A stretch of 64,000 bases of DNA from an uncultured Gemmatimonadota bacterium (GCA_964490075.1 CAZBBK010000013.1:1-64000); one strand, 5' to 3'. Positions 5,291-57,307 are shown, numbered from the stretch's first letter. Program-made: numbers and translations. Notes: a model not told the origin generated them from the letters alone.

Positions 5291-5435
5291 CACGAGCTGG
5301 CAGTCGTCGTTCCACTCGCTGAGCAGCGCGGCAGTTTGCCAGATGTCGCCTTCCACCTGGATCGATTCGAAGACATCGGGGTGGCGCTGGCCGAGATCGA
5401 TGGAACATCTCATCCGGCCCGCGTATCCTTCGGTC

Positions 5436-5738
5436 ATGTCGATGCTGTGCCCCACTCCGCCCGAGCGTCTCCTCGACGCCCGTGGTCGGCCCTACTTCTT
5501 GTGGGATTCAGACATGCCCCTGAAGCGCTTCGAGGAGCTTCTGCGCGACGGCGACGACGTGGTGCGGGCGCATCTGATCGCGAAGCTCATGCGCCAGGCC
5601 AAGCCGGACGATGTCTTCACCTTCGTCTCCCTGAAAGAGATCGGTGAGCTGTGGCCGAACCTGGCCTATCGGTTGGGTCGGACCCGCGACTTCTGGACTT
5701 GGCTGTTGACGCGATGGGGCGTCGTGACCGATGGGTAG
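5436..5738 (+). CDS. Small putative antitoxin partner (YFLWD motif)
   Basis: About 100 aa, RPYFLWD motif, overlaps the start of the downstream nucleotidyltransferase. Confidence 0.7.
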   Translation: MSMLCPTPPERLLDARGRPYFLWDSDMPLKRFEELLRDGDDVVRAHLIAKLMRQAKPDDVFTFVSLKEIGELWPNLAYRLGRTRDFWTWLLTRWGVVTDG

Positions 5739-6405: not shown

Positions 6406-6471
6406 GAGGGGTCTCGTCGATAGGAATTCGCTCCGCCGGGGGGCGATGGCCACTACGTCGTGAATCGGATC

Positions 6472-7887: not shown

Positions 7888-7888
7888 C

Positions 7889-11361
<3,473 letters not shown>

Positions 11362-11473
11362 GGAAAGCGGCCCCGTCCCGGCCGGCGCGGGGCTATCCTG
11401 AAACGAGGTCGCATGCTGACCCGACCGGGGCCGACCCGCTCGCGCTTCGGCGCAGACACGAGAGGAGAACCCG

Positions 11474-13462
11474 ATGTGGCGGAGAAGCGGACTCGGAATC
11501 GTCGCCCTGCTGCTTGCGGTGAGCGCCCCTGGCGCCACCCTTCGTGTACCCGCCGATCATCCCTCCATCCAGGGGGCGATCGATGCGGCGCTGGACGGAG
11601 ATCTGGTGCTGATCTCTCCCGGCACCTACACCGAGTGGGAGATCGACTTCCTCGGCAAGGCGATCACCGTGAGCGGCACCGACCCGAGCGATCCGGCGGT
11701 GGTCGATTCGACGGTGGTGGATGGATCGGAAAACGGCTCGGTGTTCGTGCTGCGCTCGGGTGAGGGGCGCGGGACTCGATTGGCGGGGGTTACCGTGATG
11801 CGAGGCAAGGCCGACTTGGGAAGCGGGATCTCTTGCATCGATGTGTCGCCGACCATTATCGCTTGCGCGATTCGCAACAACGACAGCTGGGGTGCTCTGG
11901 CGCCAATGGGACGATGCGGGGGTGGCGTATATTGCGAGCGCGGGGCGCCGCTCTTCATCGACTGCCGAATCCTGGAAAACTGGACCAGGACCGGCAACGA
12001 CATCTCCAATACCTCAGACGCTCACGGTGGAGGGGTATGCATACGAGACGGAACACCGGTCTTCGTCGGTTGTGAGATCCGTGACAATCACGCTGGCGGC
12101 TTCACTTACCAGCCTGCCCGCGCCGCGGGCGGCGGGGTCTTCTTGGGTGCGGCCGCGGACGCGGTGTTCCTCGACTGTGCCATCGTCGACAATGATGCCG
12201 ATGCAGACTACACCTTCGGGGGCGTGGGGCGCGGGGGCGGCATCTTCGGTTTGAGGAGCTCGCTCGACTTGATTCGGTGCGAGATCTCCGGCAACAGCAT
12301 CGGGAGACGCGGACTCATCGGGGGAGTTGAGTTTTACGGGAAAAGACTTCGACTGATCGGCTGCAACATCTCCGACAATGCCTGCAGCGGAATCGTCGCA
12401 AGGACAAGTACATTGGAAGTGGAGGATACCGTTGTGCGTGGGCATTCGGGCCCGGGATCCGACGACGATCTCGGGGGGGGAATCGACTGGGACGGTGACC
12501 AGGCACGCATTGCCAATAGCGACATCCTCAACAACACAACTCAAAGCTGCGGAGGCGGGCTTCGCCTGCGCGGACCAGCGCTGGTCGACTCATGCACGGT
12601 GAGGGGGAATGTAGGCAACGAATTCGGCGGTGGATTGTGTGTCGAGGGCGTGGTCACGATCCGCTCTTCCTTGATCGACAGCAACCGGGTCGGAGTCTGG
12701 CCGGCGCCTTCCGGCGGTGCGATCTATGTCGCCGCAGGAGGATCGATCGGACTGGAAGACTGCACCCTGAGCTTCAACTGGTCGCCCTACAAGGGGGGCG
12801 GGGTGTACACAGAGGGAATCGGGGCGACCTTGGTCGATTGCCGGCTACGCGGCAACGGCGCTGGACATGGCGGCGCGGCATACCTGGCCGAGGGATCACT
12901 GCTGATGTCCAACTGCGAGACCCGGGCCAACACGTCCGCATCTGGAGGCAGCGTCATTCACGCAGCCGCGGGAACGCTGACCACCGAAGCCACGCTCATC
13001 ACGGAGAACATGGCCCATGGATGGGGACTTGATGGCGCCGCGATCGAGGTCGGTGGATGCCTGGCAACACTCCGCAACTGCACCATCACCACCAACACCG
13101 CCGAAGACGCAATGATCCTGGTCCAGGATAAAGGCGCCGCCACGATAACCAACTGCATCATCTGGAACAACGACGCCCCCGAGACGATCCGCGCCGACTC
13201 CGCCGCGGTGCAGATCCGTTACAGCACCGTCAACGGCGGCTGGCCGGGTATCGGCAACATCGACGCCGACCCGCTATTCCGCGCTCTCGGCCCCTACAAC
13301 TACTTGCTGCGCGCGGGATCTCCCGCCATCGATGCCGGCGATCCGGAGCTCTCTGACGCGATCTTCGACTGGCATCCACGCTGGCCGGCATGGCAGCCTG
13401 ATGGCGAGCGCTCCGACATGGGGGCCTACGGCGGACCGGCAAATCGTGGTTGGTTGCCGTAG
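11474..13462 (+). CDS. Secreted right-handed parallel beta-helix protein
   Basis: Signal peptide, LRVPADHPSIQGAID, GGG(V/I) repeats, C-terminal DWHPRWP..PDGERSDMGAYGGPANRGW. Confidence 0.9.
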   Translation: MWRRSGLGIVALLLAVSAPGATLRVPADHPSIQGAIDAALDGDLVLISPGTYTEWEIDFLGKAITVSGTDPSDPAVVDSTVVDGSENGSVFVLRSGEGRGTRLAGVTVMRGKADLGSGISCIDVSPTIIACAIRNNDSWGALAPMGRCGGGVYCERGAPLFIDCRILENWTRTGNDISNTSDAHGGGVCIRDGTPVFVGCEIRDNHAGGFTYQPARAAGGGVFLGAAADAVFLDCAIVDNDADADYTFGGVGRGGGIFGLRSSLDLIRCEISGNSIGRRGLIGGVEFYGKRLRLIGCNISDNACSGIVARTSTLEVEDTVVRGHSGPGSDDDLGGGIDWDGDQARIANSDILNNTTQSCGGGLRLRGPALVDSCTVRGNVGNEFGGGLCVEGVVTIRSSLIDSNRVGVWPAPSGGAIYVAAGGSIGLEDCTLSFNWSPYKGGGVYTEGIGATLVDCRLRGNGAGHGGAAYLAEGSLLMSNCETRANTSASGGSVIHAAAGTLTTEATLITENMAHGWGLDGAAIEVGGCLATLRNCTITTNTAEDAMILVQDKGAATITNCIIWNNDAPETIRADSAAVQIRYSTVNGGWPGIGNIDADPLFRALGPYNYLLRAGSPAIDAGDPELSDAIFDWHPRWPAWQPDGERSDMGAYGGPANRGWLP

Positions 13463-13474
13463 CGGGGACACTGA

Positions 13475-13700
13475 TCAAGGACCCAACCAACCCTCGACCG
13501 GCGTCCGCAAGAACTCCTCGAGCGGAATGCCGCCCTCGCCCACGAGCAGCGTGCGCGTGACGGCGCGCCGCCACCGCTCGGAGTCGCGAGCCAGCGGTGC
13601 GGCGTCGGGATGACCGCCGAAGAGCAGGTACTGCTCGACGGTGAAGTCGAATGCGGCTCGCATCTCGGTCAGCGACCAGTGGGGCAGCCGCATCATCTCG
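13475..13700 (-). pseudogene. Internally deleted AAA-family ATP-binding protein relic
   Basis: Mid-protein RLPHWSLTEMRAAFDFTVEQYLLFGGHP joined directly to C-terminal LLVGEGGIPLEEFL..PVEGW. Confidence 0.6.
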
Positions 13701-13736
13701 CGGTTCGGGGGGCGGTCTCGACGGCGCTTCTTCGCG

Positions 13737-13760
13737 TGCCCCTGCCCCTGCCCATGCCCT
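13737..13760. repeat. Hexamer tandem repeat (TGCCCN)4
   Basis: tgcccc tgcccc tgccca tgccct; roughly the reverse complement of 14457-14492. Confidence 0.7.
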
Positions 13761-13789
13761 GTACCGTTTCTCTCAACCTAGCTGGAGCC

Positions 13790-14085
13790 CCTGATCAGGG
13801 ATCATCCAGTCAGGCCAGTCCAATCCGCCGGGAGCCACCTTTTTTGCCCAGCGCTTCGAGCGCCAGCACAGGGGTGACCCGACCATCGCGGCGGCCTTGT
13901 ATGTGCGTTTCAGCAAGGAGTTGGCCATGGAAGAGACGAATGTCTCGCGGAGCCGACGGTGATCGAGCTCCGGGGACCCAAGAAGCCGCGGTCGCCCATG
14001 TGGAGCGGCTCGTGGAGCGGCTTCGCGTGGTGAAGCGCCAGATCCGGCGGTGTCACCAACGACTCGACGGGCTCTGCGGCGTTCC
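13790..14085 (+). mobile_element. Probable IS110-family relic (non-coding leader, start codon, internal transposase fragment)
   Basis: AAGGAG 13915-13920 plus ATG 13927; APGTQEAAVAHVERLVERLRVVKRQIRRCHQRLDGLC resembles the IS110 coiled-coil region. Confidence 0.45.
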
Positions 14086-14147
14086 GCGGCATAGTCCTAC
14101 TTTCGTGAAATTGGGCGGGCGCCCGCGGCTTGGGTCGTCGTCCAGGC

Positions 14148-14308
14148 CTGGATTCCGGCTTTCGCCGGAATGACGAATAGGGGGCTGATCGTCGAGAGGT
14201 GGGCGGCGCGTTCGGCGGAGCCGTGTGCTCCATCCGCAAGCAGACGCAGCCATCGATCCACCCGTCGACGCCTCCTTCCCCGTCATTCCGGCGAAAGCCG
14301 GAATCCAG
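14148..14308. repeat. Pair of inverted CGTC-type REP elements
   Basis: 14281-14308 CGTCATTCCGGCGAAAGCCGGAATCCAG is the exact reverse complement of 14148-14175. Confidence 0.9.
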
Positions 14309-14456
14309 TCCGATCCAACACCAAACATCTGTCCAGCCGCTGGTGCGGTCCCACCGCCCGAAGACCATCCCCCTCTAAGAGGCGCCCGGGGTCACGGCCC
14401 CGGAGTTTTTCGTTGCCTAATGGTGAGGAGCCCCGCCCGACTCCGTTGCCCGAATC

Positions 14457-14669: not shown

Positions 14670-15467
14670 GTGTACCCGATCCTGCTCTCGCTCGGCCCGC
14701 TGCACATCTACGCCTACGGCTTCATGCTCGCCGTCGCCTTCCTGGTCTGCGGGCACCTGTTTCGCAAGGAGCTGGAGCGAACCGGCGGCGACCCGAGCCT
14801 GGCCGACTCGCTGCTGGTGGCCGCGGTGATCGGTGGCATCGTCGGCGCGCGCATCTGGTCGGTGGCCGAGAAATGGCAGGAGTTCCTGGCCGACCCGCTG
14901 GGCGGACTCTTCTCGGGCAGCGGTCTGGTCTTCTACGGCGGGGCGATCGGCGGCACGCTGACCGTGCTCTGGGTCCTGCGCCGCCGGCGCCAGAATGCCC
15001 TCGAGATCGCCGATATGATCTTCCCGCTCCTGGTGCTCGGCTACGGCTTCGGGCGGGTCGGTTGTGTTCTGGCCGGGGATGGTGACTACGGCGCGCCCTC
15101 CGATCTGCCCTTCCCGCTGGCGGTTTCGATACCGGACGCGTTGGTCCCGCCGCACCGCCACCCGGCGCTGATCGGCCAGGGACTGGCTGCCGATACTCCG
15201 GTCCTGAATACACCGCTCTTCGAGACCGTGGCCAGCTGGAGCCTGTTCGCGCTGATCTGGAGGCGGCGGTGGAGGCGCCCGCCGGCGGGGGAAATGCTGG
15301 GACTGGGGATGTGCGCCATGGCGCTGGAGCGGATCGTGATCGAAGCCTGGCGGCTCAACGAGCCGGCGTTCGGGCCGCTGACCGCGGCGCAGGTGTTCAG
15401 CGTCGGGCTGCTGCTGGTCGGGGGCTACTCTCTGGCCTGGTCACGGTCGAATCGCGCGGTCGAATGA
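14670..15467 (+). CDS. lgt: Prolipoprotein diacylglyceryl transferase
   Basis: MYPILL..GPLHIYAYGFM, GGIVGARI, GLVFYGG, GRVGC..GDGDYG. Confidence 0.92.
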   Translation: MYPILLSLGPLHIYAYGFMLAVAFLVCGHLFRKELERTGGDPSLADSLLVAAVIGGIVGARIWSVAEKWQEFLADPLGGLFSGSGLVFYGGAIGGTLTVLWVLRRRRQNALEIADMIFPLLVLGYGFGRVGCVLAGDGDYGAPSDLPFPLAVSIPDALVPPHRHPALIGQGLAADTPVLNTPLFETVASWSLFALIWRRRWRRPPAGEMLGLGMCAMALERIVIEAWRLNEPAFGPLTAAQVFSVGLLLVGGYSLAWSRSNRAVE

Positions 15468-15622: not shown

Positions 15623-17437
15623 GTGAGTTCGATCGGATTCCCCGTGGCGCCGCCGGATGCCCCGGCGGGATGCGCCACGCTGATAGACGTGCTGCGCTTC
15701 CGCGGCCTGGAGCAGGCCGCCAACGACGCGTTCATCGCGCCCTGCGATGACCCCGACCAGGCACGCGCGATCACCAACGGTGGCCTGGAGCGTTGGGCGC
15801 GCCGCTTCGCCTCCCACCTGCAGAGCCGCGGCGCCCGTGGCCAACGGGTGGTGCTGCTCTGCAACACGGGGCTGGAGTACATCGCCGCCTACTTCGGCGT
15901 GCTGATGGCGGGGGCGGTCGCGGTTCCGACCTATCCCCTGATGCGGCCGAACCGGCGCAAGTTCCTGCTGCGACTGATCCAGGACGCCCGGCCTGTGATC
16001 ATTCTGGCGGAGCGCGAGATCCACGACGCGGGAGTGCAGGCGTTCAAGGACGAGCCCTCGATCGCGAACGTTCGGTGGATCGCGGCGGATGAGCTCGACG
16101 AGGGGTGCGAGGAGCTTTGGACCGACCCCGGCGTGGGACCGGACGACGTCGGCATGCTGCAGTACACCTCCGGATCGACCGGGCATCCCAAAGGGGTGAT
16201 GGTCACCCACGCCAACCTGATCGGCCAGACGGCGTCGATCTACCACTGGCTCGAGCGGCCGCCGACCACGCCCGGCCAGACCTTCCTGCCCCTCTATCAC
16301 GACATGGGGCTGATCGGCGCGATCCTCTACCCCTTCTACGCCGGATTCCCGGTCGGGGTGATGTCGCCGCTCTCGTTCGTGCAGCGGCCGGTGCGCTGGC
16401 TGGAGACGATCAGCGCGTTGCGGGCGACGATCTCGGGGGGCCCCAACTTCGCCTACGACCTGTGCGTCGACAAGGTGAGCGACGCCGAGATCGAGCGCCT
16501 CGACCTGAGCTGCTGGCGCTACGCCTTCATGGGATCGGAGCCGATCCGCGCCGAGACCTTGGATCGATTCTCGGAGCGTTTCGCGCGCTGCGGGTTCCGG
16601 CGCGAGCACCTTTTTCCGGCCTACGGCTGTGCCGAGAGCACCATCATGATCGTCGGCCGGCCGGCGGCGGAGCGCGGCCCCGTGGTGCGGGTGTTCGATG
16701 GACGCGAGCTGCCCAAGGGGCGCGCGGTCGACGCGGCCCCAGATTCCGAGGATGCCCGGACCATGGTCAGCAGCGGCGAGGCGCTGGCAGGCCACGTGCT
16801 GAAGATCGTCGACCCCGAGACGCGCGAGGTGCTGCCGCAGCGGCGCATCGGCGAGATATGGGCCCAGGGCAACGGGGTGGCGAGCGGCTACTTCGACAAG
16901 CCGCAGGCGACCGACGACACCTTCGCCGCAACCACCGCCGACGGCGAGGGCCCCTTCCTGCGCACCGGCGATCTCGGCTTCCTGCTCGGCTCCAAGCTCT
17001 TCATCACCTCGCGCTTGAAAGATCTGATCATCGTCGCCGGCAAGAACCACCATCCGCCCGACATCGAGGAATCGGTGGAGGATGCGCACCCGGCGCTGCA
17101 GTCCTGCGGAGCGATCGTCTTCTCGGCCGACATCGAGGGCGCGGAGCGGGTGGTGGTGGTGGCGGAGGTGCGGCGGCGGCTCAAAGTCAGTCTCGGCGAG
17201 CCGACCGATCCGCCGGTCAACGGAGCGCTGCGTGCCTGGCAGGTGGTGGGGGAGGAGGAGATCGTGACGGCGGTTCGGCGCGTGGTATCGAGAGACCACG
17301 ACCTCGCCCTGCACGAGGTGCTGCTGCTGCGGCCCAACTCGATTCCCAAGACCACCAGCGGCAAGCTGGCCCGCGCCGCCGCCCGCCAGGCCTACCTGGA
17401 CGGCACCCTGCGCCCGGCCCGATCGGAGGCGCCATGA
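15623..17437 (+). CDS. Fatty acyl-AMP ligase (FAAL)
   Basis: LQYTSGSTGHPKGV, LPLYHDMGLIG, GGPNFAY, YGCAEST, LRTGDLG, IPKTTSGK. Confidence 0.93.
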   Translation: MSSIGFPVAPPDAPAGCATLIDVLRFRGLEQAANDAFIAPCDDPDQARAITNGGLERWARRFASHLQSRGARGQRVVLLCNTGLEYIAAYFGVLMAGAVAVPTYPLMRPNRRKFLLRLIQDARPVIILAEREIHDAGVQAFKDEPSIANVRWIAADELDEGCEELWTDPGVGPDDVGMLQYTSGSTGHPKGVMVTHANLIGQTASIYHWLERPPTTPGQTFLPLYHDMGLIGAILYPFYAGFPVGVMSPLSFVQRPVRWLETISALRATISGGPNFAYDLCVDKVSDAEIERLDLSCWRYAFMGSEPIRAETLDRFSERFARCGFRREHLFPAYGCAESTIMIVGRPAAERGPVVRVFDGRELPKGRAVDAAPDSEDARTMVSSGEALAGHVLKIVDPETREVLPQRRIGEIWAQGNGVASGYFDKPQATDDTFAATTADGEGPFLRTGDLGFLLGSKLFITSRLKDLIIVAGKNHHPPDIEESVEDAHPALQSCGAIVFSADIEGAERVVVVAEVRRRLKVSLGEPTDPPVNGALRAWQVVGEEEIVTAVRRVVSRDHDLALHEVLLLRPNSIPKTTSGKLARAAARQAYLDGTLRPARSEAP

Positions 17438-18441
17438 CCGGCCAGCGCGAGGCGCCGCTCCCCGGGCTCGGCAGCAACGCCGATGGCCGGCGCGGCCCGG
17501 ACGACCAGACGCCCGGGGTCGCCACCGCCGGTATCGAGCGAGCCAATCGCTTGCAGCGGCGGCTGGCGGCGCTGGTCGTCGGGTTGCCTCTGGTCGGCTT
17601 CGTGGTCGGAGTGGCGCAGGTGGCGCGCGGGTCGGTCGGCTGGTTGGAGCTGGTTCTTTTCGCCGCGATGTACCTGCCGGCGTCGTTGGGGATCGAGCTC
17701 GGCTTCCACCGCTTCTTCTCTCACCGCGCCTTCGCCGCCGGGCCCGCCCTCACCGCGACCCTGGCGATCCTCGGGTCGATGGCGGCGCAGGGACCGGTGC
17801 TCTTCTGGGCGGCGATCCACCGCCGGCACCACGCCTTCAGTGACCGCCCCGGCGATCCCCATTCGCCCAATCTGGGAGGCGACGGGACCTGGGAGACGCT
17901 GCGCGCCTGGTGGCATTCGCACGCCGGCTGGATGTTCGTGGCCGAGACGACCGGTTTCGCCCGTTATGTGCCCGACATCTTGCGTGACCGGGTGGTGTTC
18001 GCCACCAGCCGCTTCTATCCCCTCTGGGTCGTGCTCGGTCTCGTGCTGCCGGGGCTGGCCGGCGCCCTTCTGGCGCCCCACGCTGCGTCCGGCTTCGTCC
18101 AAGGGGTGCTCTGGGGCGGACTGATTCGGATCTTCGCGACCGATCAGATGACCTGGAGCGTCAACTCCTTCGGCCACCTCTTCGGGCGACGCCTCTTCGA
18201 CGCCAAGGACCGCAGCGGGAACATCGCCTGGCTGGCTCTGCCGAGCCTGGGAGGCTCCTGGCACAACACCCACCACGCCTTTCCCCGGGCCGCGCGCAAC
18301 GATATCTGGCGCCACCAGCTCGATCCTTCCGGTTGGATCGTCGCCCTGCTCGAGCGCGCCGGACTGGCCTGGGATGTCAAGACAGTCACCCCGGAGAAGG
18401 CTCGCGCCCGGCAGCGGGCCCTGGAGGGAGCAACAGAATGA
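17434..18441 (+). CDS. Membrane acyl-ACP desaturase/acetylenase (delta9/JamB-like) 1
   Basis: His boxes HRFFSH, HRRHH, HNTHH; ATGA overlap with FAAL. Confidence 0.9.
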   Translation: MTGQREAPLPGLGSNADGRRGPDDQTPGVATAGIERANRLQRRLAALVVGLPLVGFVVGVAQVARGSVGWLELVLFAAMYLPASLGIELGFHRFFSHRAFAAGPALTATLAILGSMAAQGPVLFWAAIHRRHHAFSDRPGDPHSPNLGGDGTWETLRAWWHSHAGWMFVAETTGFARYVPDILRDRVVFATSRFYPLWVVLGLVLPGLAGALLAPHAASGFVQGVLWGGLIRIFATDQMTWSVNSFGHLFGRRLFDAKDRSGNIAWLALPSLGGSWHNTHHAFPRAARNDIWRHQLDPSGWIVALLERAGLAWDVKTVTPEKARARQRALEGATE

Positions 18442-19409
18442 CCGGCAATACTCCCAAAGGGATTTCGATCGCTCCTCCCGACGCACACCAGGTGCAGTGG
18501 ATAATGGCATTCCTGACCGTGGCGATTCCCAACGCGGCGTTGATCTGGGGGGCTGTTGTAGTGATTCAGGGAAGGGCAGGGTGGATCGAGCTCGCCCTGT
18601 TCGCGACGATGTATTTCGTGACCTTGGCCGGCGCCACGATCGGCATGCATCGGCTTTTCTCGCATCGGGCTTTTCAGACCAGCCGGTGGATGACGACTCT
18701 GCTGGCGATCACCGGCTCAATGGCGGCCCAGGGGCCCTTGATGTTCTGGGCATCGAACCACCGCCGCCACCACGCCTACTCCGATCGTGTGGGAGATCCG
18801 CACTCGCCCAACCTCCATGGCGACGGTTTCCGGCGGCGCGCGCGGGGACTGTGGTTCAGCCACATCGGCTGGATGTTCTCGGACGAGACCAGCAACTGGT
18901 CGGTGTTCATCCGCGACCTGGTGAGGAATCGACTGCTCTTCGACCTGCATCGTAGCTACCTGCTCTGGGTGTTGCTCGGTCTGGCGATCCCGACCCTCGC
19001 CGGCGGGTTGCTACACCGATCGTGGCTGGGGGCATGGTACGGACTGCTCTTCGGGGGGTTGATCCGCATGGCCCTGGTGAACCACGCCGCCTGGGCGGTC
19101 GGATCGCTCTCGCATCGGTGGGGGACGACGCCTTTCCGCACCCGAGATCTGAGCGTCAACAACTACTTCGTCGCCCTGGTCGCATTCGGCGAAGGGCTGC
19201 AGAACAACCACCATGCATTCCCCAGCTCGGCCCGCCACGGACTCACCTGGTGGCAGCCCGATATCAGCGGCTGGATCATCATCGTGCTCGCCAAGCTGGG
19301 TTTGATCTGGAACGTCAAGCACCCCTCCGCGTCCGCGATTCGGCGCGCCCGGGGTGGTGCCGACTGTTCACACATCGGTGTGATCGAAGAAGAAGGAGCT
19401 CTCGCATGA
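18438..19409 (+). CDS. Membrane acyl-ACP desaturase/acetylenase (delta9/JamB-like) 2
   Basis: His boxes HRLFSH, HRRHH, QNNHH; ATGA overlap. Confidence 0.9.
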   Translation: MTGNTPKGISIAPPDAHQVQWIMAFLTVAIPNAALIWGAVVVIQGRAGWIELALFATMYFVTLAGATIGMHRLFSHRAFQTSRWMTTLLAITGSMAAQGPLMFWASNHRRHHAYSDRVGDPHSPNLHGDGFRRRARGLWFSHIGWMFSDETSNWSVFIRDLVRNRLLFDLHRSYLLWVLLGLAIPTLAGGLLHRSWLGAWYGLLFGGLIRMALVNHAAWAVGSLSHRWGTTPFRTRDLSVNNYFVALVAFGEGLQNNHHAFPSSARHGLTWWQPDISGWIIIVLAKLGLIWNVKHPSASAIRRARGGADCSHIGVIEEEGALA

Positions 19410-19774
19410 CGATGGAGACGACGACGAACGGAAGCTCGGGCCTGCTCGGGCTGCTATCGAGCTGGATGGGCGGGCGCAAGGAAGCGGGCGCCGCTCCGGC
19501 CGCCCGCGACCACAGCCACCCGCTCACCGAGGAAGAGGTGCGCGACTGGCTCGCCGTGCTGCTCGCCGAGCGGTTGAAAGTCACCGTGGCGGAGGTCGAC
19601 ACCGCCAAGACCTTCGAGGAGTACGGGCTCGACTCGCGAACCGCGGTGGCGGTGTCCGGCGAGTTGGAGGAGTGGTTGGGACGTCCCATCGAACCGACCT
19701 TGCTCTGGGACTGCCCTTCGATCGACGCGGTGGCGACGCAGTTGAGTGGGGCTGCTCAGTCCGAGATCGGTTGA
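19406..19774 (+). CDS. Acyl carrier protein
   Basis: FEEYGLDSRTAV phosphopantetheine motif; AAGGAG RBS; ATGA overlap. Confidence 0.92.
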   Translation: MTMETTTNGSSGLLGLLSSWMGGRKEAGAAPAARDHSHPLTEEEVRDWLAVLLAERLKVTVAEVDTAKTFEEYGLDSRTAVAVSGELEEWLGRPIEPTLLWDCPSIDAVATQLSGAAQSEIG

Positions 19775-19817: not shown

Positions 19818-19975
19818 GAACTTGACACTTTCCGCACCGAGCCGGATTGAGTCTTACATTTCCCGCTCATTCGCCCGCGAAAAGGCCCATCGACGAGGAG
19901 TTGAGGCCTGTTTTGGCGCCGATTCGATGCCGGATGTCAAACTGAATCCGCTTCGGTGCGAGAAGTGTCAAGCTC
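19818..19975. repeat. 158-bp palindromic element, copy A
   Basis: 44-bp imperfect inverted arms 19818-19861 and 19932-19975 around a 70-bp core; homologous to 39618-39775. Confidence 0.8.
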
Positions 19976-20037
19976 AGGCGGGTTGGGGGCTGGTGGCCCG
20001 CGTTTCCGAGCGGTCTTTCGCTGGATCCGCCGGGTAG

Positions 20038-20300
20038 GTGGTGGATCCAGGTTCGGTCTTCATCAGGTCCGATCAGGAGCCGGTGGAGGTCAGCTACAGC
20101 GACATCGAGGGCGGCCACGAGGGAGTGGGCAACATCGACGCGGATCCGCTCTTCGTGGAGCGTTTCGGCTGGGAGTACCTACTGCACCCCGACTCCCCCT
20201 GCATCGACGCCGGAGATCCGGATTGCCACGATCACCTCTACGACACCTGGTCACATTGGCACGAGCGTATCAGCAACGGACCCGAGCGCGATGCAGATGG
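20038..20300 (+). pseudogene. Orphan C-terminal fragment of beta-helix family gene
   Basis: VSYSDIEGGHEGVGNIDADPLF..YLLHPDSPCIDAGDP..DHLYD..W..NG without N-terminus or GAYGGP end. Confidence 0.75.
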
Positions 20301-20334
20301 GATGCAAACACGGGAGTTATTTCTTCGCCGACCC

Positions 20335-21375
20335 TTACCCAAAGCTCCGATAGAGCCGCGTCGCGGGATCGTGCAAATGACATTCGCGCACGATGCGGCG
20401 CAGCGTGCGCGGCCGGAAGCGGTCCACCCGGACCAGCTCCGGGTAGGCTTGCATCAGCGCCTGCTGCGCCCGCGGCAGATGGAAGAAGGGGATGGTCGGT
20501 GCGACGTGGTGCGGCGCGTGCACGTTGATATTGTGGACCAGCCGCTCGATCCACCTCGGGTAGCGGTAGTGGATGGTGAGCGCCAGGTTGCTGCCGGCGC
20601 GGCTCCACTCGGCGCCGCTCAGATACGGGAGCTCCGGGTGGGTGTGGTGCATCATGGTGACGGCGCTGAACCAGGCGTGGGTGATCACCCAGGGAACGAC
20701 ATATAGCTTCACCACGCCCCAGGCGCCGACCAGCGAGAAGAGCGGCGGAAAGAAGAGCAGCGCGAAGACGACGACCATGGCGATCGAGAAACGCACCTCC
20801 TTGGCCTGGCGGCGGCCGTGCATCGCGGTCGTGAAGGCGTCCGCGGCCCAGTTGACGGCCGTGGCGGTCCACCAGGCGTGACGGCGTACCGTGTAGTAGA
20901 GGGCGCGGGCCGGGGGCGGCAGGGCGGCGTAGGCCTCGGGCGTGGGCGGCACCCAGTTGTTGTCGCGCTCCAGGCAGTTGGTGTGAGCGTGGTGGATATT
21001 GTGCAGCAGCCGCCAGGAGTGGAAGGGGTAGAGCAGCGGCGTCATCAGGAGGTGGCCCACCAGGTGATTCAGACGCGCGCTCTTCGAAAAGGCGTGATGG
21101 CCGCACTCGTGGGCGATGACCACCATCCCCCAGCCGGCCGTTCCGGCGGCGATCCAGCCGAGGGGCATCAGCCACCAGGGACCGAGCGTCAAGGCGGCGA
21201 TCGCCGCTGCCAGCAAGGCCAGCGAGATCGCGATTGCCCCGAGCTGCCGGACGACGCTTCTCCGGTAGCATTCCCTGGGGATATGCCCGGCCACTTCGCC
21301 GGCATCGAGCTGTGCCATGCGCCGAACCAGCGCGAGTGTCGGATCGTCGCGATCCGTCACCGATGTCGTGGCCAT
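20335..21375 (-). CDS. Delta12/omega-6-type (DesA-like) fatty acid desaturase
   Basis: His boxes HECGH, HNIHH, HAPHH; YPFHSWRL, IPFFHL; AAAGGGAG RBS. Confidence 0.9.
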   Translation of the reverse strand: MATTSVTDRDDPTLALVRRMAQLDAGEVAGHIPRECYRRSVVRQLGAIAISLALLAAAIAALTLGPWWLMPLGWIAAGTAGWGMVVIAHECGHHAFSKSARLNHLVGHLLMTPLLYPFHSWRLLHNIHHAHTNCLERDNNWVPPTPEAYAALPPPARALYYTVRRHAWWTATAVNWAADAFTTAMHGRRQAKEVRFSIAMVVVFALLFFPPLFSLVGAWGVVKLYVVPWVITHAWFSAVTMMHHTHPELPYLSGAEWSRAGSNLALTIHYRYPRWIERLVHNINVHAPHHVAPTIPFFHLPRAQQALMQAYPELVRVDRFRPRTLRRIVRECHLHDPATRLYRSFG

Positions 21376-21453: not shown

Positions 21454-22623
21454 TCAGAAGAGGTCGGCGTCGCCGATCGACAGGAACCAGCTGCGGGGGT
21501 CGCGGAGCAGATCGCGCAGAGTTTCGTCGGGCTGGCCCGGAGGCGGCTCGGGGTCGCCCGGAACGGGGTTCTCGAGGAAGGTCCGCCGCACGATCAGCTC
21601 GTAGCCTTCGGCCTCGTCGGGGAAGAAGCCGGCCTCCAGCAAGGGGCGGCGCAGGTGGCAGTGGGGGAACATCCAGCACTGGAGCGACGAGGTCTTGCCG
21701 GCGCCCGCCCACTCGATGCAGCGGGCGATCAGCTCGCTCGCGACGAAGGGCTCGGCGTCCTTCGGGGTGACCAGCTCGACGATCTGCGCGCACGCACGCT
21801 CGCCCCCTTCCTCGAGGAGCACGGCGTAGCCCAGCACCTGGTCGCCGCGCTCGATGCAAAGCAGATGGTGCGGGTGGTTCGGGATGTCGACGAAACGCCA
21901 GTTCAGGGTGGATGCGTCGCGCACCGTCATGACCGCGTAGTCGTCGCGGCAGCGGCGCCAGAGTGCGTCAAAGCGTGCGTCAAAACGCTCCAGGCGGGTC
22001 GCCCGAACCCCCTCGGGCAGAGGAGGACGGCGACCGGCGGGCCGCGCCCAGAGGCGGTTCGCGCAGGCCGCCGCCGGGCGCGCCAGCCAGGCGACCGGCA
22101 GCCGGCGCTCGAAGGTCCGGGTGAGGTCGATCCTGCGTCGCATCTGGGGGATCGCCGCGACCCCCTCCGCGTGCGCCAATCCCTTGAACAGCTTGGCGTT
22201 GTCAGCCGGCGCGCAGCCGTAGAGGAAGGCGATCCCGCGACCGGCGTTGATATGAGGCCGGGCCTGCGTGAGCTCGAAGATGCTCTTCATGGAGCGGTGC
22301 CGTGGATCGATGATCAGATCGTGATCGTGGGCGCCCAGCAGCTCCTTGCCGCCAACCATGACGCGCACCGGGAACGATCCGATCTGCCCGACCGCGCTGC
22401 CCTCCACCACGACCACCGAGCCCACCGCCGGCCCGGCCGGGCTCGCATGGAACTTCCAATCCCAAAAACTCCCATTCCCCCACGGACCTTCGCGGCCGCG
22501 AAAGAGCGCCATCAAGCTCGGCTTGTCCGCCTCGCGGTAACGCCGCACCAGGCGCCCTTGGTCGATCCGCTTCGACCACTCCGCCGCCGCCGGCAGCCCA
22601 GTCGTGTCGGGGCTTTCGCTCAG
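21454..22623 (-). CDS. GNAT-family acyltransferase (tandem GNAT folds); start uncertain
   Basis: VRRYREAD, WDWKF...PAG, LIIDPRHR, VRDASTLNWRF..IP, GDADLF; the ORF-track extension to 22986 overlaps tlpA and is unlikely. Confidence 0.75.
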   Translation of the reverse strand: MSESPDTTGLPAAAEWSKRIDQGRLVRRYREADKPSLMALFRGREGPWGNGSFWDWKFHASPAGPAVGSVVVVEGSAVGQIGSFPVRVMVGGKELLGAHDHDLIIDPRHRSMKSIFELTQARPHINAGRGIAFLYGCAPADNAKLFKGLAHAEGVAAIPQMRRRIDLTRTFERRLPVAWLARPAAACANRLWARPAGRRPPLPEGVRATRLERFDARFDALWRRCRDDYAVMTVRDASTLNWRFVDIPNHPHHLLCIERGDQVLGYAVLLEEGGERACAQIVELVTPKDAEPFVASELIARCIEWAGAGKTSSLQCWMFPHCHLRRPLLEAGFFPDEAEGYELIVRRTFLENPVPGDPEPPPGQPDETLRDLLRDPRSWFLSIGDADLF

Positions 22624-23177
22624 CGGCCCGCCCCTGCCTTGAGCGCTCCCCAGCTCGTCGACTGCACGCCGACGCCCAGAAGCTCCTCGATCTTCTGCTT
22701 CCAGATCGACTCGGTGAATCCCTCTTCGGTCCAGGTGATGATGCCGTCCTGGTCGATCAGGAAATTGCGCGGCAGCGCCGACACGCTGTAGTCGGAGAAC
22801 ACGGTCCCGAATTCGTCGTGCCCGAAGGGGAAGGTCATCTCCTCGCCCAGCAGGCCGTGCTTGTAGAGCGCGATGATCGCCAGGGCGTCGAACTGGTTGA
22901 CCGAGATCGCCGTGAAGTCGTCCGGTCCGTAGACCTGTTGGAAGTCGGTCTCGATGACCGGCAGCTCTTCCTTGCAGGGTCCGCACCAGGAGGCCCAGAA
23001 GTTCAGCAGCACCACCTTGCCGAGGTGCTCGGAGAGCGTGACGCGCCCGCCGTCGGCCTCCGGGATGTCGAAGTCGGGCGCGGTGTCGCCGATGCCGATC
23101 GCGGGAGCCGCGGCGGCGCCCAGCGTGGCGGCAAAGAGGATTGTCACATAACGAATTGCGGGGGTTTTGGGGCGCAT
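22620..23177 (-). CDS. TlpA-family thiol:disulfide oxidoreductase with SWGALKA tail
   Basis: APDF, LLNFWASWCGPC, LPRNFLIDQDG; C-terminus VQSTSWGALKA. Confidence 0.9.
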   Translation of the reverse strand: MRPKTPAIRYVTILFAATLGAAAAPAIGIGDTAPDFDIPEADGGRVTLSEHLGKVVLLNFWASWCGPCKEELPVIETDFQQVYGPDDFTAISVNQFDALAIIALYKHGLLGEEMTFPFGHDEFGTVFSDYSVSALPRNFLIDQDGIITWTEEGFTESIWKQKIEELLGVGVQSTSWGALKAGAGR

Positions 23178-23297
23178 TCTCGGCTCCGGGCTCCGGGTCT
23201 GGCGGGACGGTCGAATTGACCCGCTTATGATGCGAAGACTACGCTTACTATCTTATGTAGTCGTCCCGCGCCCGTGGCTTTTTTTCAGGATTCGCCC

Positions 23298-25022
23298 ATG
23301 CAACGTGTTCCATTGCTCCTCCTTGTCGGCTCGATCGTGGCTCTCGCGGCTCCCGCCCAGGCCGCCGAACGCAGCGTCATGGCCGAGCTCATGACCGCCA
23401 CCTGGTGCACCTACTGCCCCTGGGCCGAGTCGGCGCTCCACCAGCTCGAGGACGAGTACGATCGCGACCGCTTCGTGGTGATCGGCTACCACGTCACCGA
23501 CGAGTACTCCAACGTCGAGGGCGACGCCCGGATCGGCTACTACCAGATCACCGGCACCCCCACCACGGCGTTCGACGGCACGAGTCTGATCGTGGGGGGC
23601 TGGGACGGCGTCTACACCTCCTACAAGAACCGGATCGACTCCGATATGACGCAGGAGGCGCAGCTCGAGATGTCGATCACCGGCACCGCGACCGGCAGCC
23701 AGGTCGACTACGCGGTCCACGTCAGCGTCGGCGCCCCGCCGATCTTCACCGAGCCCAAGCTCTACGTGGCGCTCGGCGAGCGCGGGCTGATCGACGACAA
23801 CGAGGAGATGCGGCCGGTGGTGCGGCGCATCGTCTCGCACGAGCTCGGTGGACTGGTTGCGGCCGGAGACGAGGTGGTCGCCACCGGATCGTTCCCGATC
23901 GAAGAGGAATGGGACGGGTCGGCGATGGAGATCGTGGCCTTCGTGCAGGATCTCGGCGATCGCAAGGTCGATCAGTCGACCCGCATGTTCTTCACCGCCT
24001 TCGACTCTCCGACCGACCTGGTCACCGCGACCGAGGATTCGATGCGGGTGATCTCGACGCATCTCAGCAATCCCAACTCCTACCCGATCGACATGCGCAT
24101 GCAGATGGGCGACCTGTCGGAAGACGACTGGATGGCGACCTTCTGCATCCTCGAATGGGGGATCTGTCTTCCCGACTCGCTCGATCTCACGCTGCCCGCC
24201 GACTCCACGGTCACTGTCAAGCTGCAGTGGATCGACATGGGGGCGACCGAGAAGACTCTCACTTCGAACTTCATGATGCGTTACGGCGAGAACTACGACA
24301 TCGTCAAGAGCGTGCCCTACACCGCGCGCTCCGGCCAGGTGACGCTGGAGGTCGCCGAGCTCTTGATCGACGACGACAACGAAGGGGGCAGCTCCGGCAA
24401 CGGCGACGGCGTGCCGCAGCCGGGCGAGGCGATCGAGTTCATTACCCGCGCCCACAACACCGGCGGATTGCTCGCCTATGGCGTCAACTCGGAGCTCACC
24501 ACCTCCGACGCCGGGGTGTTCGTTTTCGAGCCGGAGGAGAGCTACGGAGACATCGACGCCGGCGCCACCGCCGACGGCTCCGGCGGCCGCTTCGTGCTCG
24601 ACGAAGACGTGGTCCCCGAAACTGTGCTGACCTTCGTCCAGACCTTCACCGACGCCGAGCAGAACGTCTTGAGCGACACCATTTACGTGGAGGTCGGCGC
24701 GGTCGGCGTGGCCGGCGACGGTCCCGGGCTGCCCGGACCGAGCAGAACGGCGCTGCACCAGAATCAGCCCAATCCCTTCAATCCGCGCACCAATATCGGC
24801 TTCGACCTGCAGCAAAGCAGCGATCGGGTCGATCTGAGCGTGTACGACCTGAGCGGACGGGAAGTGCGGCGGTTGATCGACGGGCCGCGGCCGGCCGGTC
24901 GCCATTCGGTGGTCTGGGACGGCACCGACTCCCAGCACCGACCACTCCCCAGCGGTGTCTACCTCTATCGCTTGACGACCGGCGACCAGAGCCTGACCCG
25001 CCGGATGCTGCTCATCAAGTAG
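23298..25022 (+). CDS. Omp28-like thioredoxin-fold secreted protein with FlgD-Ig/T9SS-like C-terminal domain
   Basis: Signal peptide, ELMTATWCTYCP, IGYH, GTPTTAFDG, IVAFVQD; QNQPNPFNPRT...SGVYLYRL...RRMLLIK. Confidence 0.88.
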   Translation: MQRVPLLLLVGSIVALAAPAQAAERSVMAELMTATWCTYCPWAESALHQLEDEYDRDRFVVIGYHVTDEYSNVEGDARIGYYQITGTPTTAFDGTSLIVGGWDGVYTSYKNRIDSDMTQEAQLEMSITGTATGSQVDYAVHVSVGAPPIFTEPKLYVALGERGLIDDNEEMRPVVRRIVSHELGGLVAAGDEVVATGSFPIEEEWDGSAMEIVAFVQDLGDRKVDQSTRMFFTAFDSPTDLVTATEDSMRVISTHLSNPNSYPIDMRMQMGDLSEDDWMATFCILEWGICLPDSLDLTLPADSTVTVKLQWIDMGATEKTLTSNFMMRYGENYDIVKSVPYTARSGQVTLEVAELLIDDDNEGGSSGNGDGVPQPGEAIEFITRAHNTGGLLAYGVNSELTTSDAGVFVFEPEESYGDIDAGATADGSGGRFVLDEDVVPETVLTFVQTFTDAEQNVLSDTIYVEVGAVGVAGDGPGLPGPSRTALHQNQPNPFNPRTNIGFDLQQSSDRVDLSVYDLSGREVRRLIDGPRPAGRHSVVWDGTDSQHRPLPSGVYLYRLTTGDQSLTRRMLLIK

Positions 25023-25086
25023 CGCGCAACTTCCGATGCCCCTTGCTCCAGGGCCGGAGCGGGGGCATCTCGCCAAGGAGCCGCCG

Positions 25087-25590
25087 ATGCGATTGATCTC
25101 CGCCCTCGCCCTCAGCCTGACGCTCGCGAGCTTCTGCGCGCCGCCCAGCCACGCCGCCGACAAGATCCCCAACTTCAACCTCGAGAAGATGGATGGGGGG
25201 CGCAGCAAGCTCGCCGACTTCCTCGGCGAAGGCCCGGTGCTGCTGAACTTCTGGGCCACCTGGTGCAAGCCCTGCAAGCAGGAGGCTCCGCACCTGATCG
25301 AGCTCTACGAGGAGTACCGCGAGCGCGGCCTGCAGGTGGTGGCGATCGCCGTCGACGACGTGAGCTCGCAGGCCAAGGTGAAGCCGGCCGCGCGCAAGAT
25401 GGGGCTCACCTATCCCGTGCTGCTCGATCCGAAGGGGCGCTACGCCCAGCGCCTGCAGGCGGCGGCGCTGCCGACCAACGTGCTGCTCGACCGAGACGGC
25501 AACGCGGTGCGCACCTTCACCGGCTACCGCAAAGGCGACGAGCGGGAGATCGCGGCCGAGATCACGAAGCTGCTCACCGCCCAACAGTAG
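25087..25590 (+). CDS. TlpA-family thiol:disulfide oxidoreductase
   Basis: LLNFWATWCKPC; AAGGAG RBS; signal peptide. Confidence 0.92.
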   Translation: MRLISALALSLTLASFCAPPSHAADKIPNFNLEKMDGGRSKLADFLGEGPVLLNFWATWCKPCKQEAPHLIELYEEYRERGLQVVAIAVDDVSSQAKVKPAARKMGLTYPVLLDPKGRYAQRLQAAALPTNVLLDRDGNAVRTFTGYRKGDEREIAAEITKLLTAQQ

Positions 25591-25601
25591 ACGAAGCGCA
25601 C

Positions 25602-27263
25602 ATGAAGATGATCAGGGGTTCCCGCGGCGCGATCGCCACCCTTCTCTGCGCGGGCTTTTCCTGCGCCCGGGCATTCCAGATCTCCGGGATATCGATCAGC
25701 GGTGAGGAGGCGCTGCTGGTGCAGCGCGGCGACGAGACCGTGTTCGACGGCGGCGCGCCCGCCGACCAGAGCAAAGAGGTCCTGGAGAACCGACTCACCG
25801 TGGAGCTGCGCTGGCTGGATTGGACGCTCGGGGGGCGCTTCGATCATCTCGATCCCTCCTTCTTCGGTGCCGGCTACACCGGTCTGCGCAAGCGCTATCT
25901 CGAGTTCGAAGACGGCACCAACCACCTGCGCATCGGCTCTTTCGACACCCTGCTCGGTCAAGGGCTGGCCCTGAACCTGTACGAAGATCCGCTGATCAAC
26001 GTCGACCGGCAGCTCGATGGCTTCCTTCTGGAACGGCGGACGGCGAGCTACAGCGTGCACCTCCTGGGTGGGCTCGGCAGCTTTCTGGCATTCGAGTTCC
26101 CGGAGGAGCACCGGGAGGACCGCGTGGCGGCCGGCTACGGAACCTACCGCTGGCTGGATCGGATCGAGCTCGGCCAGGGCTACGTGGAAACTCGCGACGG
26201 AGTGCCGGGCGACAGCCGCCACATCAACCGCAAGCATCTCGCGACGCTGCGTCTCGATCTCGAACAGGGATCGTTCTACGGCGAGCTGGCGCACAACTGG
26301 GTCAGAGTCCCCGGAGAAGATCCGGCCGAGGAGGCGCCGGGGCGCGGTGGTTACGCCAAGCTCTCCGGCTGGTTCGGCGATTTTTCGCTGACCGGGGAGT
26401 ACAAGAACTACGCCCTCGACGAGCAGGCCTCGTCCAGCGCCTATTCGGGGGTCGGAATCCCCTGGTCGGAACCGCCCTCGCTGCGCCCCTTGGCCAGCCT
26501 GACTACATTGAACCGCAAGCAGTTCCTGGTGGACAAGAACAACGAGGTCGGCTTCGCCGTCGAGGGCGACTACAGTGCCCCCTTCGGTGGGACTTTTTCG
26601 CTCTTCTACCTGAACACGGCCGAGCGCTCCTACTTCGACCCCACTCCGGGGGGCGAGGAGGTGGTGGCGGCGTGGCCGAAGTGGGTCCGATTCGACGGGA
26701 TCTCCGGAAGCCTCACCAGCAACTTCGAGGAGCTGACCTTCGGCGCCGACCTGCCGATCCGGGAGGGCCTCGGCACCTACTGGGTGGCCGATCTGTCGAT
26801 CGACGGCCATATCGGCGCCCCCAAGAAGCAGCGCACCCTGGGCGTCACCACCGAGGCCGAGATCGGCGACGTCCACGGCCTGACCGTCTCGCTCGAGTAC
26901 CAGCACACCGAGGATCGGCGCTTCGAAGAGATCTACGCCGCGGACTTTCCCGAGCTCAGGCCGCCCCGATTCCACGACGGCGTCGCCACCATCACCTACT
27001 CGCGCTCCCCCTGGTTCTCGGTCTTCGTCAACCACGAACGAACCAACGAGGCGAAGCACTGGGAGGCGGTGGGTTATAAAGGAGCAGAGGAGCCCCTGGA
27101 GGATTCCTACTGGATCGCCGGCCTGGATCTCGACATCACCCACAGCACGCGCCTCGGCCTGCAGGCCGGAAGCGAACGCGGCGGCGTGGTTTGCCGGGGC
27201 GGCACCTGCAAGTTCATTCAGCCTTTCAGAGGCTGGAGGATGGACCTGGTCCACCGCTTTTAG
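25602..27263 (+). CDS. Outer-membrane beta-barrel protein, DUF6029-like
   Basis: GSFDTLLGQGLAL, EYKNY, C-terminal GSERGGVVCRGGTCKFIQPFRG...RF. Confidence 0.78.
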   Translation: MKMIRGSRGAIATLLCAGFSCARAFQISGISISGEEALLVQRGDETVFDGGAPADQSKEVLENRLTVELRWLDWTLGGRFDHLDPSFFGAGYTGLRKRYLEFEDGTNHLRIGSFDTLLGQGLALNLYEDPLINVDRQLDGFLLERRTASYSVHLLGGLGSFLAFEFPEEHREDRVAAGYGTYRWLDRIELGQGYVETRDGVPGDSRHINRKHLATLRLDLEQGSFYGELAHNWVRVPGEDPAEEAPGRGGYAKLSGWFGDFSLTGEYKNYALDEQASSSAYSGVGIPWSEPPSLRPLASLTTLNRKQFLVDKNNEVGFAVEGDYSAPFGGTFSLFYLNTAERSYFDPTPGGEEVVAAWPKWVRFDGISGSLTSNFEELTFGADLPIREGLGTYWVADLSIDGHIGAPKKQRTLGVTTEAEIGDVHGLTVSLEYQHTEDRRFEEIYAADFPELRPPRFHDGVATITYSRSPWFSVFVNHERTNEAKHWEAVGYKGAEEPLEDSYWIAGLDLDITHSTRLGLQAGSERGGVVCRGGTCKFIQPFRGWRMDLVHRF

Positions 27264-27283
27264 AAGATCTTGGAGACCCACGA

Positions 27284-42885: not shown

Positions 42886-42946
42886 CGGCCGGCCCCCGAA
42901 CAGACCAGGGGCCCCGGCGGACCGCGCCGAAGCCCCTGGAACGAGA

Positions 42947-57306: not shown

Positions 57307-57307
57307 G

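Follow-up and report, generated by a model that had tools for sequence, protein, structure and literature searches.

A probable polyyne-type desaturase triad beside a tandem-GNAT gene in an uncultured Gemmatimonadota bacterium

A 64,000-nucleotide stretch of DNA from an uncultured Gemmatimonadota bacterium (GCA_964490075.1 CAZBBK010000013.1:1-64000; hereafter, the window) carries genes encoding a fatty acyl-AMP ligase (FAAL), two membrane desaturases and an acyl carrier protein (ACP) in a single operon. This raises the question whether the locus belongs to the polyyne fatty-acid pathway and, if so, how a finished acyl chain would leave its carrier. Polyynes made by bacteria are strongly antifungal and algicidal, and terminal alkynes serve as useful bio-orthogonal handles. 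To our knowledge, every characterised polyyne cluster is from Pseudomonadota or Actinomycetota and uses a thioesterase to set its product free as an acid. We read the present locus as a divergent, early-branching version of this pathway that is arranged in two convergent units. These units are FAAL-Des1-Des2-ACP on the plus strand and, facing it on the minus strand, a tandem-GNAT acyltransferase gene followed by a third desaturase gene, perhaps with a redoxin gene at their head. It is very probable that the locus is a homologue of the polyyne cassette and its triad of desaturases. The six genes on which the argument turns are these:

15623..17437, plus strand: FAAL, GTG start, 604 amino acids (aa); Pfam AMP-binding 9e-64 and, for the C-terminal domain, AMP-dom_DIP2-like 5e-10
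17434..18441, plus strand: Des1, membrane desaturase in the first cassette position (CayB/PgnE), 335 aa; Pfam FA_desaturase 3e-15
18438..19409, plus strand: Des2, membrane desaturase in the second cassette position (CayC/PgnF), 323 aa; Pfam FA_desaturase 2e-20
19406..19774, plus strand: dedicated ACP, 122 aa; Pfam PP-binding 2e-13
20335..21375, minus strand: Des3, delta-12-like membrane desaturase (CayE/PgnH position), 346 aa; Pfam FA_desaturase 6e-32
21454..22548, minus strand: tandem-GNAT acyltransferase, about 352-364 aa; Pfam Acetyltransf_1 1.4e-4, a marginal match (22.5 bits against a cut-off of 20.7) and the sole Pfam match

The four co-directional open reading frames (ORFs) of the operon are joined by ATGA stop/start overlaps at 17434, 18438 and 19406, and a GGAG-type stretch resembling a Shine-Dalgarno sequence lies a few bases 5' of each overlap. 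The GC content at third codon positions is 0.80-0.90 across the four genes, like that of neighbouring genes. A scan for promoters and terminators returned no promoter-like site; terminator-like sites numbered 6, where 4.3 were expected. No NCBIfam model scores above its cut-off for any of the five core proteins (FAAL, the three desaturases and ACP). The best matches of the FAAL are nevertheless fatty-acyl-AMP-ligase models (PRK05850, 1e-116; FadD32, 7e-111), all under the curated cut-offs. The best match of the ACP, also under its curated cut-off, is the N-terminal ACP of Pks13 (1.8e-11), which fits the remark in PMC9828172 that polyyne ACPs are nearest to the ACP domains of mycobacterial polyketide synthases (PKSs). 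The serine of a GLDS motif is the predicted phosphopantetheine site of this protein.

Related loci were collected by a profile scan of genome contigs, one genome per species, with an alignment of Des2 relatives as the query, and the gene content of the resulting 80 loci was mapped by tblastn. The closest locus, L001, is a 4.2-kb contig from a Gemmatimonadetes metagenome-assembled genome (MAG). Its Des2 is 66% identical to that of the window, and the DNA of the two clusters is 67-76% identical over the aligned pieces. The other 79 loci, with Des2 identities of 44-55%, include those of Burkholderia, Collimonas, Pseudomonas asturiensis LMG 26898, Gynuella, Xenorhabdus and many Streptomyces, all of which are groups with published polyyne clusters according to the account in PMC8406139. 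The window FAAL shares 35-44% identity with those of 77 related loci, and the ACP is 27-55% identical to other cassette ACPs.

As described in PMC8406139 and PMC9828172, the polyyne core consists of a FAAL, two desaturases, an ACP and a third desaturase. The account in PMC9828172 portrays CayB and CayC as JamB-like enzymes with HxxHH and QxxHH boxes, respectively, and CayE as delta-12-like; it also states that polyyne formation needs all three desaturases and the thioesterase, and that rubredoxin only raises the yield. Des1 and Des2 of the window are paralogues (45% identity) with the same division. The histidine boxes of Des1 (HRFFSH, HRRHH and HNTHH) are all intact, and those of Des2 read HRLFSH, HRRHH and QNNHH. 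In the Pseudomonas, Burkholderia, Collimonas and Streptomyces loci, too, the third box of the second desaturase has Q in place of H.

The third desaturase gene lies 560 bp beyond the ACP gene and is convergent with the operon. Des3 is unrelated in sequence to Des1 and Des2, is of the delta-12/delta-5 type, and has intact boxes (HECGH, HNIHH and HAPHH). Its identity is 60% to the Des3 of L001 and 36-44% to the third desaturases of 61 loci, and among its homologues are the delta-12-like enzymes that occupy the third desaturase position in the caryoynencin, protegencin and collimonin clusters. When a plasmid collection was queried with Des3, the best seven matches were Streptomyces polyyne loci (39% identity), and the next match fell to 25%. 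With Des3 present on the opposite strand, the predicted polyyne desaturase triad is complete in the window, and the locus is not a truncated FAAL-Des-Des-ACP unit. An earlier note on this DNA had described the four overlapping genes correctly, and its proposed link to alkynes and polyynes is supported by the identity of Des2 to loci that include polyyne clusters. Its statement that the usual following desaturase is absent was mistaken.

A Des3 homologue is present in 62 of the 80 loci. In 61 of these it follows the ACP gene on the same strand, and the order FAAL-Des-Des-ACP-Des3 was verified by the tblastn maps in 61 of the 80. The opposite orientation seen in the window occurs among the 62 only in L001, where the gap between the ACP and Des3 genes is about 30 bp, as against 560 bp in the window. 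Most Des3-bearing loci also carry a thioesterase gene (52 of 62) and a rubredoxin gene (49 of 62). Nine actinobacterial loci with Des3 have neither, and also lack a GNAT gene of the family found in the window. Four actinobacterial loci were checked for what follows Des3: a P450 gene on the same strand comes directly after it in three (L035, L047 and L071), and in the fourth (L017) the ORF examined matched no family. Some actinobacterial triad cassettes with a P450 in place of the thioesterase and rubredoxin are described in PMC8406139. The textbook order is shown independently by a Streptomyces goshikiensis plasmid, for which the RefSeq annotation lists, one after another, a FAAL, two acyl-CoA desaturases, an ACP, a fatty acid desaturase, an alpha/beta hydrolase, a rubredoxin and a P450. 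A different association is found in loci that lack Des3: KS (ketosynthase)-containing PKS genes directly follow the cassette in L008, L009, L063, L074 and L078, and in the plasmid locus L082.

Two of these loci call for separate comment. L018, labelled Candidatus Saccharimonadales, contains a complete polyyne cassette that is nearly identical to that of Collimonas and sits on very short tree branches; its thioesterase and rubredoxin are 80% and 95% identical, respectively, to those of L019. Because a polyyne cassette is unexpected in the reduced Saccharimonadales lineage, this contig is likely to have been mis-binned. L082 occupies positions 4226-12857 of the conjugative Burkholderia gladioli plasmid p1 and encodes a FAAL, two desaturases, an ACP, a methyltransferase, a KS, an ACP and a P450. 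Its desaturases form long branches outside both cassette clades.

Phylogenetic trees place the window beside the triad-type cassettes. A tree of 67 Des1- and Des2-type rows, made by a quick search with SH-like approximate likelihood ratio (SH-aLRT) support, puts the Des1 proteins of the window and L001 inside a 19-row clade of triad-type cassettes (97) and their Des2 proteins inside a corresponding 21-row clade (95), with the two-desaturase cassettes that lack Des3 outside both. In a more careful tree of 40 rows (ultrafast bootstrap/SH-aLRT), Des1, together with that of L001, is sister to the first-position triad desaturases at 99/95. The same tree contains stand-alone desaturases of an Acinetobacter plasmid and of a Gloeothece plasmid (30% and 37% identity), which have no FAAL or ACP gene nearby, and a branch with 99/98 support splits them from all cassette desaturases. 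A grouping of Des1 and Des2 with ordinary desaturases, which together with a yield of cis-alkenes only had been named beforehand as grounds for abandoning the alkyne reading, is not seen with these outgroups. Ordinary delta-9 desaturase genes stand alone, whereas those for Des1 and Des2 are translationally coupled to FAAL and ACP genes. These desaturase trees were built without sequences labelled JamB or TtuB.

For Des3, a first tree, in which a Paracoccus outgroup had a branch of 10, was unsuitable for rooting and was replaced by one of 57 rows rooted on three eukaryotic FAD2-like proteins. In the latter, Des3 of the window groups with Des3 of L001 and of two metagenomic relatives (99). The sister of this clade (SH-aLRT 94) is the clade of 16 canonical Des3 proteins (100), and both a Planctomycetota-type clade and a cyanobacterial clade fall outside the two. 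As judged from these trees, the window and its closest relatives appear to be sister to the canonical polyyne clade, with strong support for Des1 and moderate support for Des2 and Des3. The lineage thus seems to possess the triad, yet to branch off before the canonical seven-gene clade.

The release step of the known pathway has no evident counterpart here. Thioesterase and rubredoxin queries from four canonical loci, the identity of which was confirmed by Pfam, were compared with the 64 kb by tblastn, and none of the four queries for either function matched at E<=1e-3; one ferritin-like query also found no match. Pfam scans of 53 selected ORFs of the window (21 + 32) revealed no thioesterase, rubredoxin or hydrolase domain, and the spacer that separates the ACP gene from Des3 has no recognisable small CxxC ORF. 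At only 346 aa, Des3 is not fused to an alpha/beta-hydrolase thioesterase. The 64 kb also yielded no KS or other PKS gene, nonribosomal peptide synthetase (NRPS) condensation domain, P450, FatA-type thioesterase, second adenylating enzyme, second ACP or further carrier domain. The earlier note was right that the thioesterase, the rubredoxin and any PKS or NRPS are missing from the window, and because the thioesterase is absent, its suggestion of a different off-loading route gains support. The candidate for that route, the tandem-GNAT protein, lies outside the four genes that it had considered.

The GNAT gene is located 78 bp upstream of Des3 on the same strand. Its start may be the GTG at 22548 or the ATG at 22512, and the GTG is the likely one because relatives align from upstream of the first ATG. 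L001 has the same gene in the same place beside Des3 (44% identity over 190 aa, to the end of the contig). The closest homologues in a protein collection are 55% and 44-47% identical, and the closest homologues of Des2, Des3 and GNAT share their values for the longest contig (80729 and 41486 bases), which suggests that the three genes are co-located in two more relatives. The family is large: a full HMMER search found 4596 representatives at E<=1e-3, all named just 'GNAT', and about 950 members fall at E<=1e-10. Acetyltransf_9 (PF13527) is present in 47 of 55 members scanned, and no NMT (N-myristoyltransferase) family of Pfam matched, Acetyltransf_1 and Acetyltransf_9 being the only ones that did. 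NCBIfam gave no match to the protein, and the ESM Atlas gave generic GNAT clusters only.

An AlphaFold2 model of the protein, made from 55 aligned sequences, has a tandem GNAT fold (pLDDT, the predicted local distance difference test, 92.3; predicted template modelling (TM) score, 0.91). Foldseek searches of the PDB place N-myristoyltransferases at the top (E about 1e-12, TM 0.51-0.58, 11-16% identity), and a shallower first model gave the same ranking. The sequence profile matches NMT (7.5e-4) and Eis (0.014) marginally. Like the acyltransferases of the NMT and Eis type, the window protein joins two GNAT domains in a single chain of about 360 aa, and it differs from NMT in its low identity and in a bacterial context with ACP rather than CoA logic. 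Acyl-ACP donors are used by other enzymes with the GNAT fold, among them N-acyl amino acid synthases, OlsB and N-acylhomoserine lactone synthases. A conserved C-terminal carboxylate like that of NMT was considered as a family feature and rejected. Close relatives terminate in GD(A/T)D(L/I)F, but the Azospirillum and Fibrobacteria members carry extra residues.

A profile of this GNAT family was run against the ORFs of 88 loci (the 80 scan loci and 8 plasmid loci) and matched five: L001, L072, L077, L074 and L078. None of the five has a thioesterase, and none of the 52 thioesterase-bearing loci has the GNAT. Two of the five, L072 (6145-15624) and L077 (8917-14242), come from Fibrobacteria MAGs and show the order Des-Des-ACP-GNAT-FAAL. 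L072 also encodes a polysaccharide deacetylase, a glycosyltransferase and a polysaccharide flippase, a gene setting that hints at the acylation of a sugar polymer or glycolipid. In the Acidobacteriota loci L074 and L078, both from Candidatus Sulfotelmatobacter MAGs, the GNAT comprises the C-terminal 300-350 residues of a KS-ACP protein (10991-14425 and 10940-14404; profile E 4e-20 and 5e-19). It comes directly after the carrier domain, which is the usual place of a release domain. More distant full-length members (profile E about 1e-51, 25-29% identity) occur in Azospirillum polysaccharide loci, in one of which an ACP, an AMP-binding enzyme and a polysaccharide deacetylase are alongside. As in the window, the GNAT thus stands beside a carrier protein and an adenylating enzyme in Azospirillum, although these loci have sugar-polymer genes and no desaturases.

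Set against known systems, the locus combines features of several. With the seven-gene polyyne cassette (cay, pgn, collimonin, cepacin and ergoyne) it shares the FAAL, the tandem pair of JamB-like desaturases with the HxxHH/QxxHH split between their third boxes, the ACP and the delta-12-like Des3. The first four genes are in the same order, and identities are 35-55% per protein. Unlike that cassette, it has no rubredoxin and no alpha/beta-hydrolase thioesterase (CayF, or the C-terminal half of PgnH), Des3 is inverted, and a tandem-GNAT gene stands in front of Des3. Its sequences fall outside the canonical clade, and its host lies outside Pseudomonadota and Actinomycetota. The nine actinobacterial loci without thioesterase and rubredoxin resemble it in having the full triad with FAAL and ACP, but they belong inside the canonical clade, and in L035, L047 and L071 a P450 comes after Des3, whereas the window has no P450 and has the GNAT instead. 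PKS-linked FAAL-Des-Des-ACP starter cassettes, which follow a logic like that of JamABC, share the FAAL, two related desaturases, the ACP and the lack of a thioesterase, and L074 and L078 among them carry the same GNAT family as a C-terminal domain. In those cassettes, however, KS modules follow and Des3 is missing, whereas the window has Des3 and no KS. The transfer of the chain to a PKS or NRPS that characterises JamABC and TtuABC has no counterpart within the window. Thioesterase-less triads as such were already known in actinobacteria; what appears to be new here is the inverted Des3 together with a GNAT. No triad cassette from outside Pseudomonadota and Actinomycetota with an inverted Des3 and a tandem GNAT in place of the thioesterase was found in the open-access literature, supplements excluded.

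These comparisons suggest how the pathway might work. The FAAL would adenylate a free long-chain fatty acid and load it onto the dedicated ACP, as expected from homology to PgnD and PgnG, for which such loading has reportedly been shown in vitro. The two JamB-like desaturases and the delta-12-like Des3 would then work together on the chain while the ACP carries it and give it conjugated unsaturated bonds, some of them triple, a step proposed because the three enzymes are orthologous to the essential triad. Electrons for the desaturases would be supplied by a redox partner whose gene lies in another part of the genome. Because no thioesterase is present, the finished chain might not be hydrolysed. 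Instead, the GNAT could move it from the ACP thioester to an amine and so form an N-acyl (amide) conjugate, for which amino sugars, amino acids and amino lipids are candidate acceptors. The case for this role is made by the position of the gene, the fold of the protein and the recurrence of its family in thioesterase-less cassettes. Judged from sequence, an ene-yne or polyunsaturated product is what the genes point to, and we lean slightly towards a product that contains triple bonds. On this reading, the product is likely to be a previously undescribed type of amide-linked lipid. The whole chain of events, from triad-made triple bonds to release by the GNAT as an N-acyl conjugate, is put forward tentatively, as a proposal that is close to evenly balanced but tilts towards doubt.

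Several observations weigh against this proposal. The window falls outside the canonical clade in the Des1, Des2, Des3 and FAAL trees, and Des3 sits on a long stem in the tree with the Paracoccus outgroup, so something other than a polyyne could be made. For Des2, the sister position is weakly supported in the careful tree (64/88) and was unresolved in a quick tree of the same 40 rows. The FAAL is excluded from the canonical FAAL clade (99), and its exact place among the non-canonical FAALs is unresolved. Des3 and the GNAT gene belong to a transcription unit of their own, convergent with the operon, and the spacer contains the remnant of a gene. A thioesterase could be encoded elsewhere in the genome. 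With regard to the GNAT, the five loci that carry it amount to about three independent lineages only, and for the contigs of 80729 and 41486 bases, an equal length is no proof that the genes adjoin. Moreover, given the moderate TM scores, the 11-16% identity and a fold that is common to Eis-like acetyltransferases, a long-chain donor is unproven by the fold.

Other explanations accept some of these genes and set others aside. Perhaps the triad does make a polyyne-type chain, and the GNAT is a tailoring enzyme, a resistance enzyme or an unrelated acetyltransferase, with a free acid being released by an unlinked hydrolase or spontaneously. The published minimal set does need a thioesterase for release (PMC9828172), GNATs are common bystanders that in this case belong to a large and generic family, and the nine actinobacterial triads without thioesterase, rubredoxin or GNAT demonstrate that such triads exist. 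Yet the GNAT is kept beside Des3 in L001 and was met in thioesterase-less cassettes only (5 of 5), its fusion after the ACP in L074 and L078 is hard to square with a role in resistance, and a polyyne fatty acid offers no amine to an acetyltransferase. We therefore regard a bystander GNAT as unlikely. It is still less probable that the desaturases supply ordinary polyunsaturated, alkene-only acyl chains for membrane lipids and that Des3 is simply a normal delta-12 acyl-lipid desaturase that happens to be nearby. Relatives of Des1 and Des2 are annotated as 'stearoyl-CoA delta-9 desaturase' and those of Des3 as 'omega-6/delta-12 desaturase', Des3 is 39-42% identical to cyanobacterial desaturases, which is about as near as canonical polyyne Des3 proteins are, and its separate convergent unit and a lipid-handling Lgt next door would suit such a role. 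However, the translational coupling of FAAL and ACP to two desaturases is a thiotemplated layout and not that of acyl-lipid desaturases, the outgroup desaturases that stand alone are split off by the well-supported branch described above, and Des3 groups with the polyyne Des3 clade rather than with the cyanobacterial one and keeps the same arrangement in L001.

A further possibility is that the operon prepares an unsaturated or alkynyl starter unit, as in jamaicamide biosynthesis, for a PKS or NRPS encoded outside the window. This would agree with the PKS genes that directly follow the cassette in the six Des3-less relatives, with the position of the window FAAL on the side of the PKS-linked loci in the FAAL tree, and with the missing thioesterase. 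In the PKS-linked loci, though, a KS adjoins the cassette, and the 64 kb contain no KS, condensation domain or further adenylation domain. Des3 is found in none of the five annotated PKS-linked scan loci; of the 62 loci that do have it, 52 carry a thioesterase and so are of the free-acid type, and nine more are the actinobacterial ones without. A starter unit is accordingly a very improbable role for this locus, and a polyyne-type triad that is followed by acyl transfer remains the reading that we prefer.

The genes around the cluster add three further features:

14670..15467, plus strand: Lgt, prolipoprotein diacylglyceryl transferase, 155 bp upstream of the FAAL gene; Pfam LGT 3e-42
20038..20337, plus strand: remnant, about 100 codons long, from the C-terminal part of a beta-helix surface-protein family; located in the ACP-Des3 spacer
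22620..23177, minus strand: TlpA/AhpC-like protein with a thioredoxin fold and a signal-like segment at its N-terminus; Pfam Redoxin 6.5e-21 and AhpC-TSA 7e-20

Lgt was considered as a conserved member of the cluster and rejected, because no homologue occurs in the 80 related loci. The TlpA-like redoxin gene shares its strand with the GNAT gene and lies just upstream of it; the redoxin too has no homologue in the 80 loci, and its membership in the cluster is doubtful. The remnant is, by tblastn, 49% identical to 13187-13381, 47% to 60226-60450 and 43% to 41830-42036, and three fuller copies of its family are present in the window. It is probably not a member of the pathway and may mark a rearrangement at the point where Des3 was inverted. 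The longer ORFs 19956-20528 and 20038-20706 were rejected as genes: where they match the related loci, they run antisense to Des3, and the real remnant is confined to 20038-20337.

The rest of the window holds housekeeping, regulatory and surface-protein genes, several of them with FlgD-Ig or Por-secretion-tail C-termini. Two TlpA/AhpC-like redoxins, two Omp28-like proteins and a DUF6029 protein are encoded in 22620-28321; one of the Omp28-like proteins has an FlgD-Ig and Por-secretion-tail C-terminus, and more FlgD-Ig C-termini occur at 43323-45173 and 57161-59377. These endings suggest cargo of a type IX-like secretion system. An unusual fusion of 1344 aa at 28399-32433 (plus strand) combines TPR repeats, two AAA+ modules (ClpB-like AAA_2 with a D2-small domain) and a C-terminal peptide-chain-release-factor domain (PCRF, Pfam 1.7e-22). 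An AbiEii-type nucleotidyltransferase toxin gene (Pfam 6e-16) preceded by a small ORF (5277-6405, plus strand) and, apart from it, a PIN-domain gene (53568-53972, plus strand) are probable toxin-antitoxin modules. An Rfam scan of the window found three tRNAs only. Two are tRNA-Ser genes (442-531 and 603-692), and the third, tRNA-Arg(ACG) at 42947-43023 (minus strand), overlaps the 5' end of the longest ORF of a SpoU-methylase gene (42091-43017), which implies that the true start of the latter is further downstream.

A broader interpretation would see here a sister branch of the polyyne pathway in phyla for which none has been described, in which an NMT-like GNAT ends the pathway by forming N-polyynoyl conjugates, with amino sugars, amino lipids, amino acids or even the N-termini of proteins as acceptors. 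The GNAT family would then be a general, acyl-ACP-dependent release enzyme for FAAL/ACP-templated lipids, either standing alone or fused after the ACP of a KS-ACP protein. We hold this wider view to be doubtful. In itself, a complete triad in a Gemmatimonadota-like lineage that is sister to the known clusters would widen the range of the pathway, and would serve as an outgroup for understanding how the three desaturases cooperate. If hydrolysis is indeed exchanged for acyl transfer, amide-linked polyyne lipids would be the products to expect, and a new family of release enzymes could become available for engineering.

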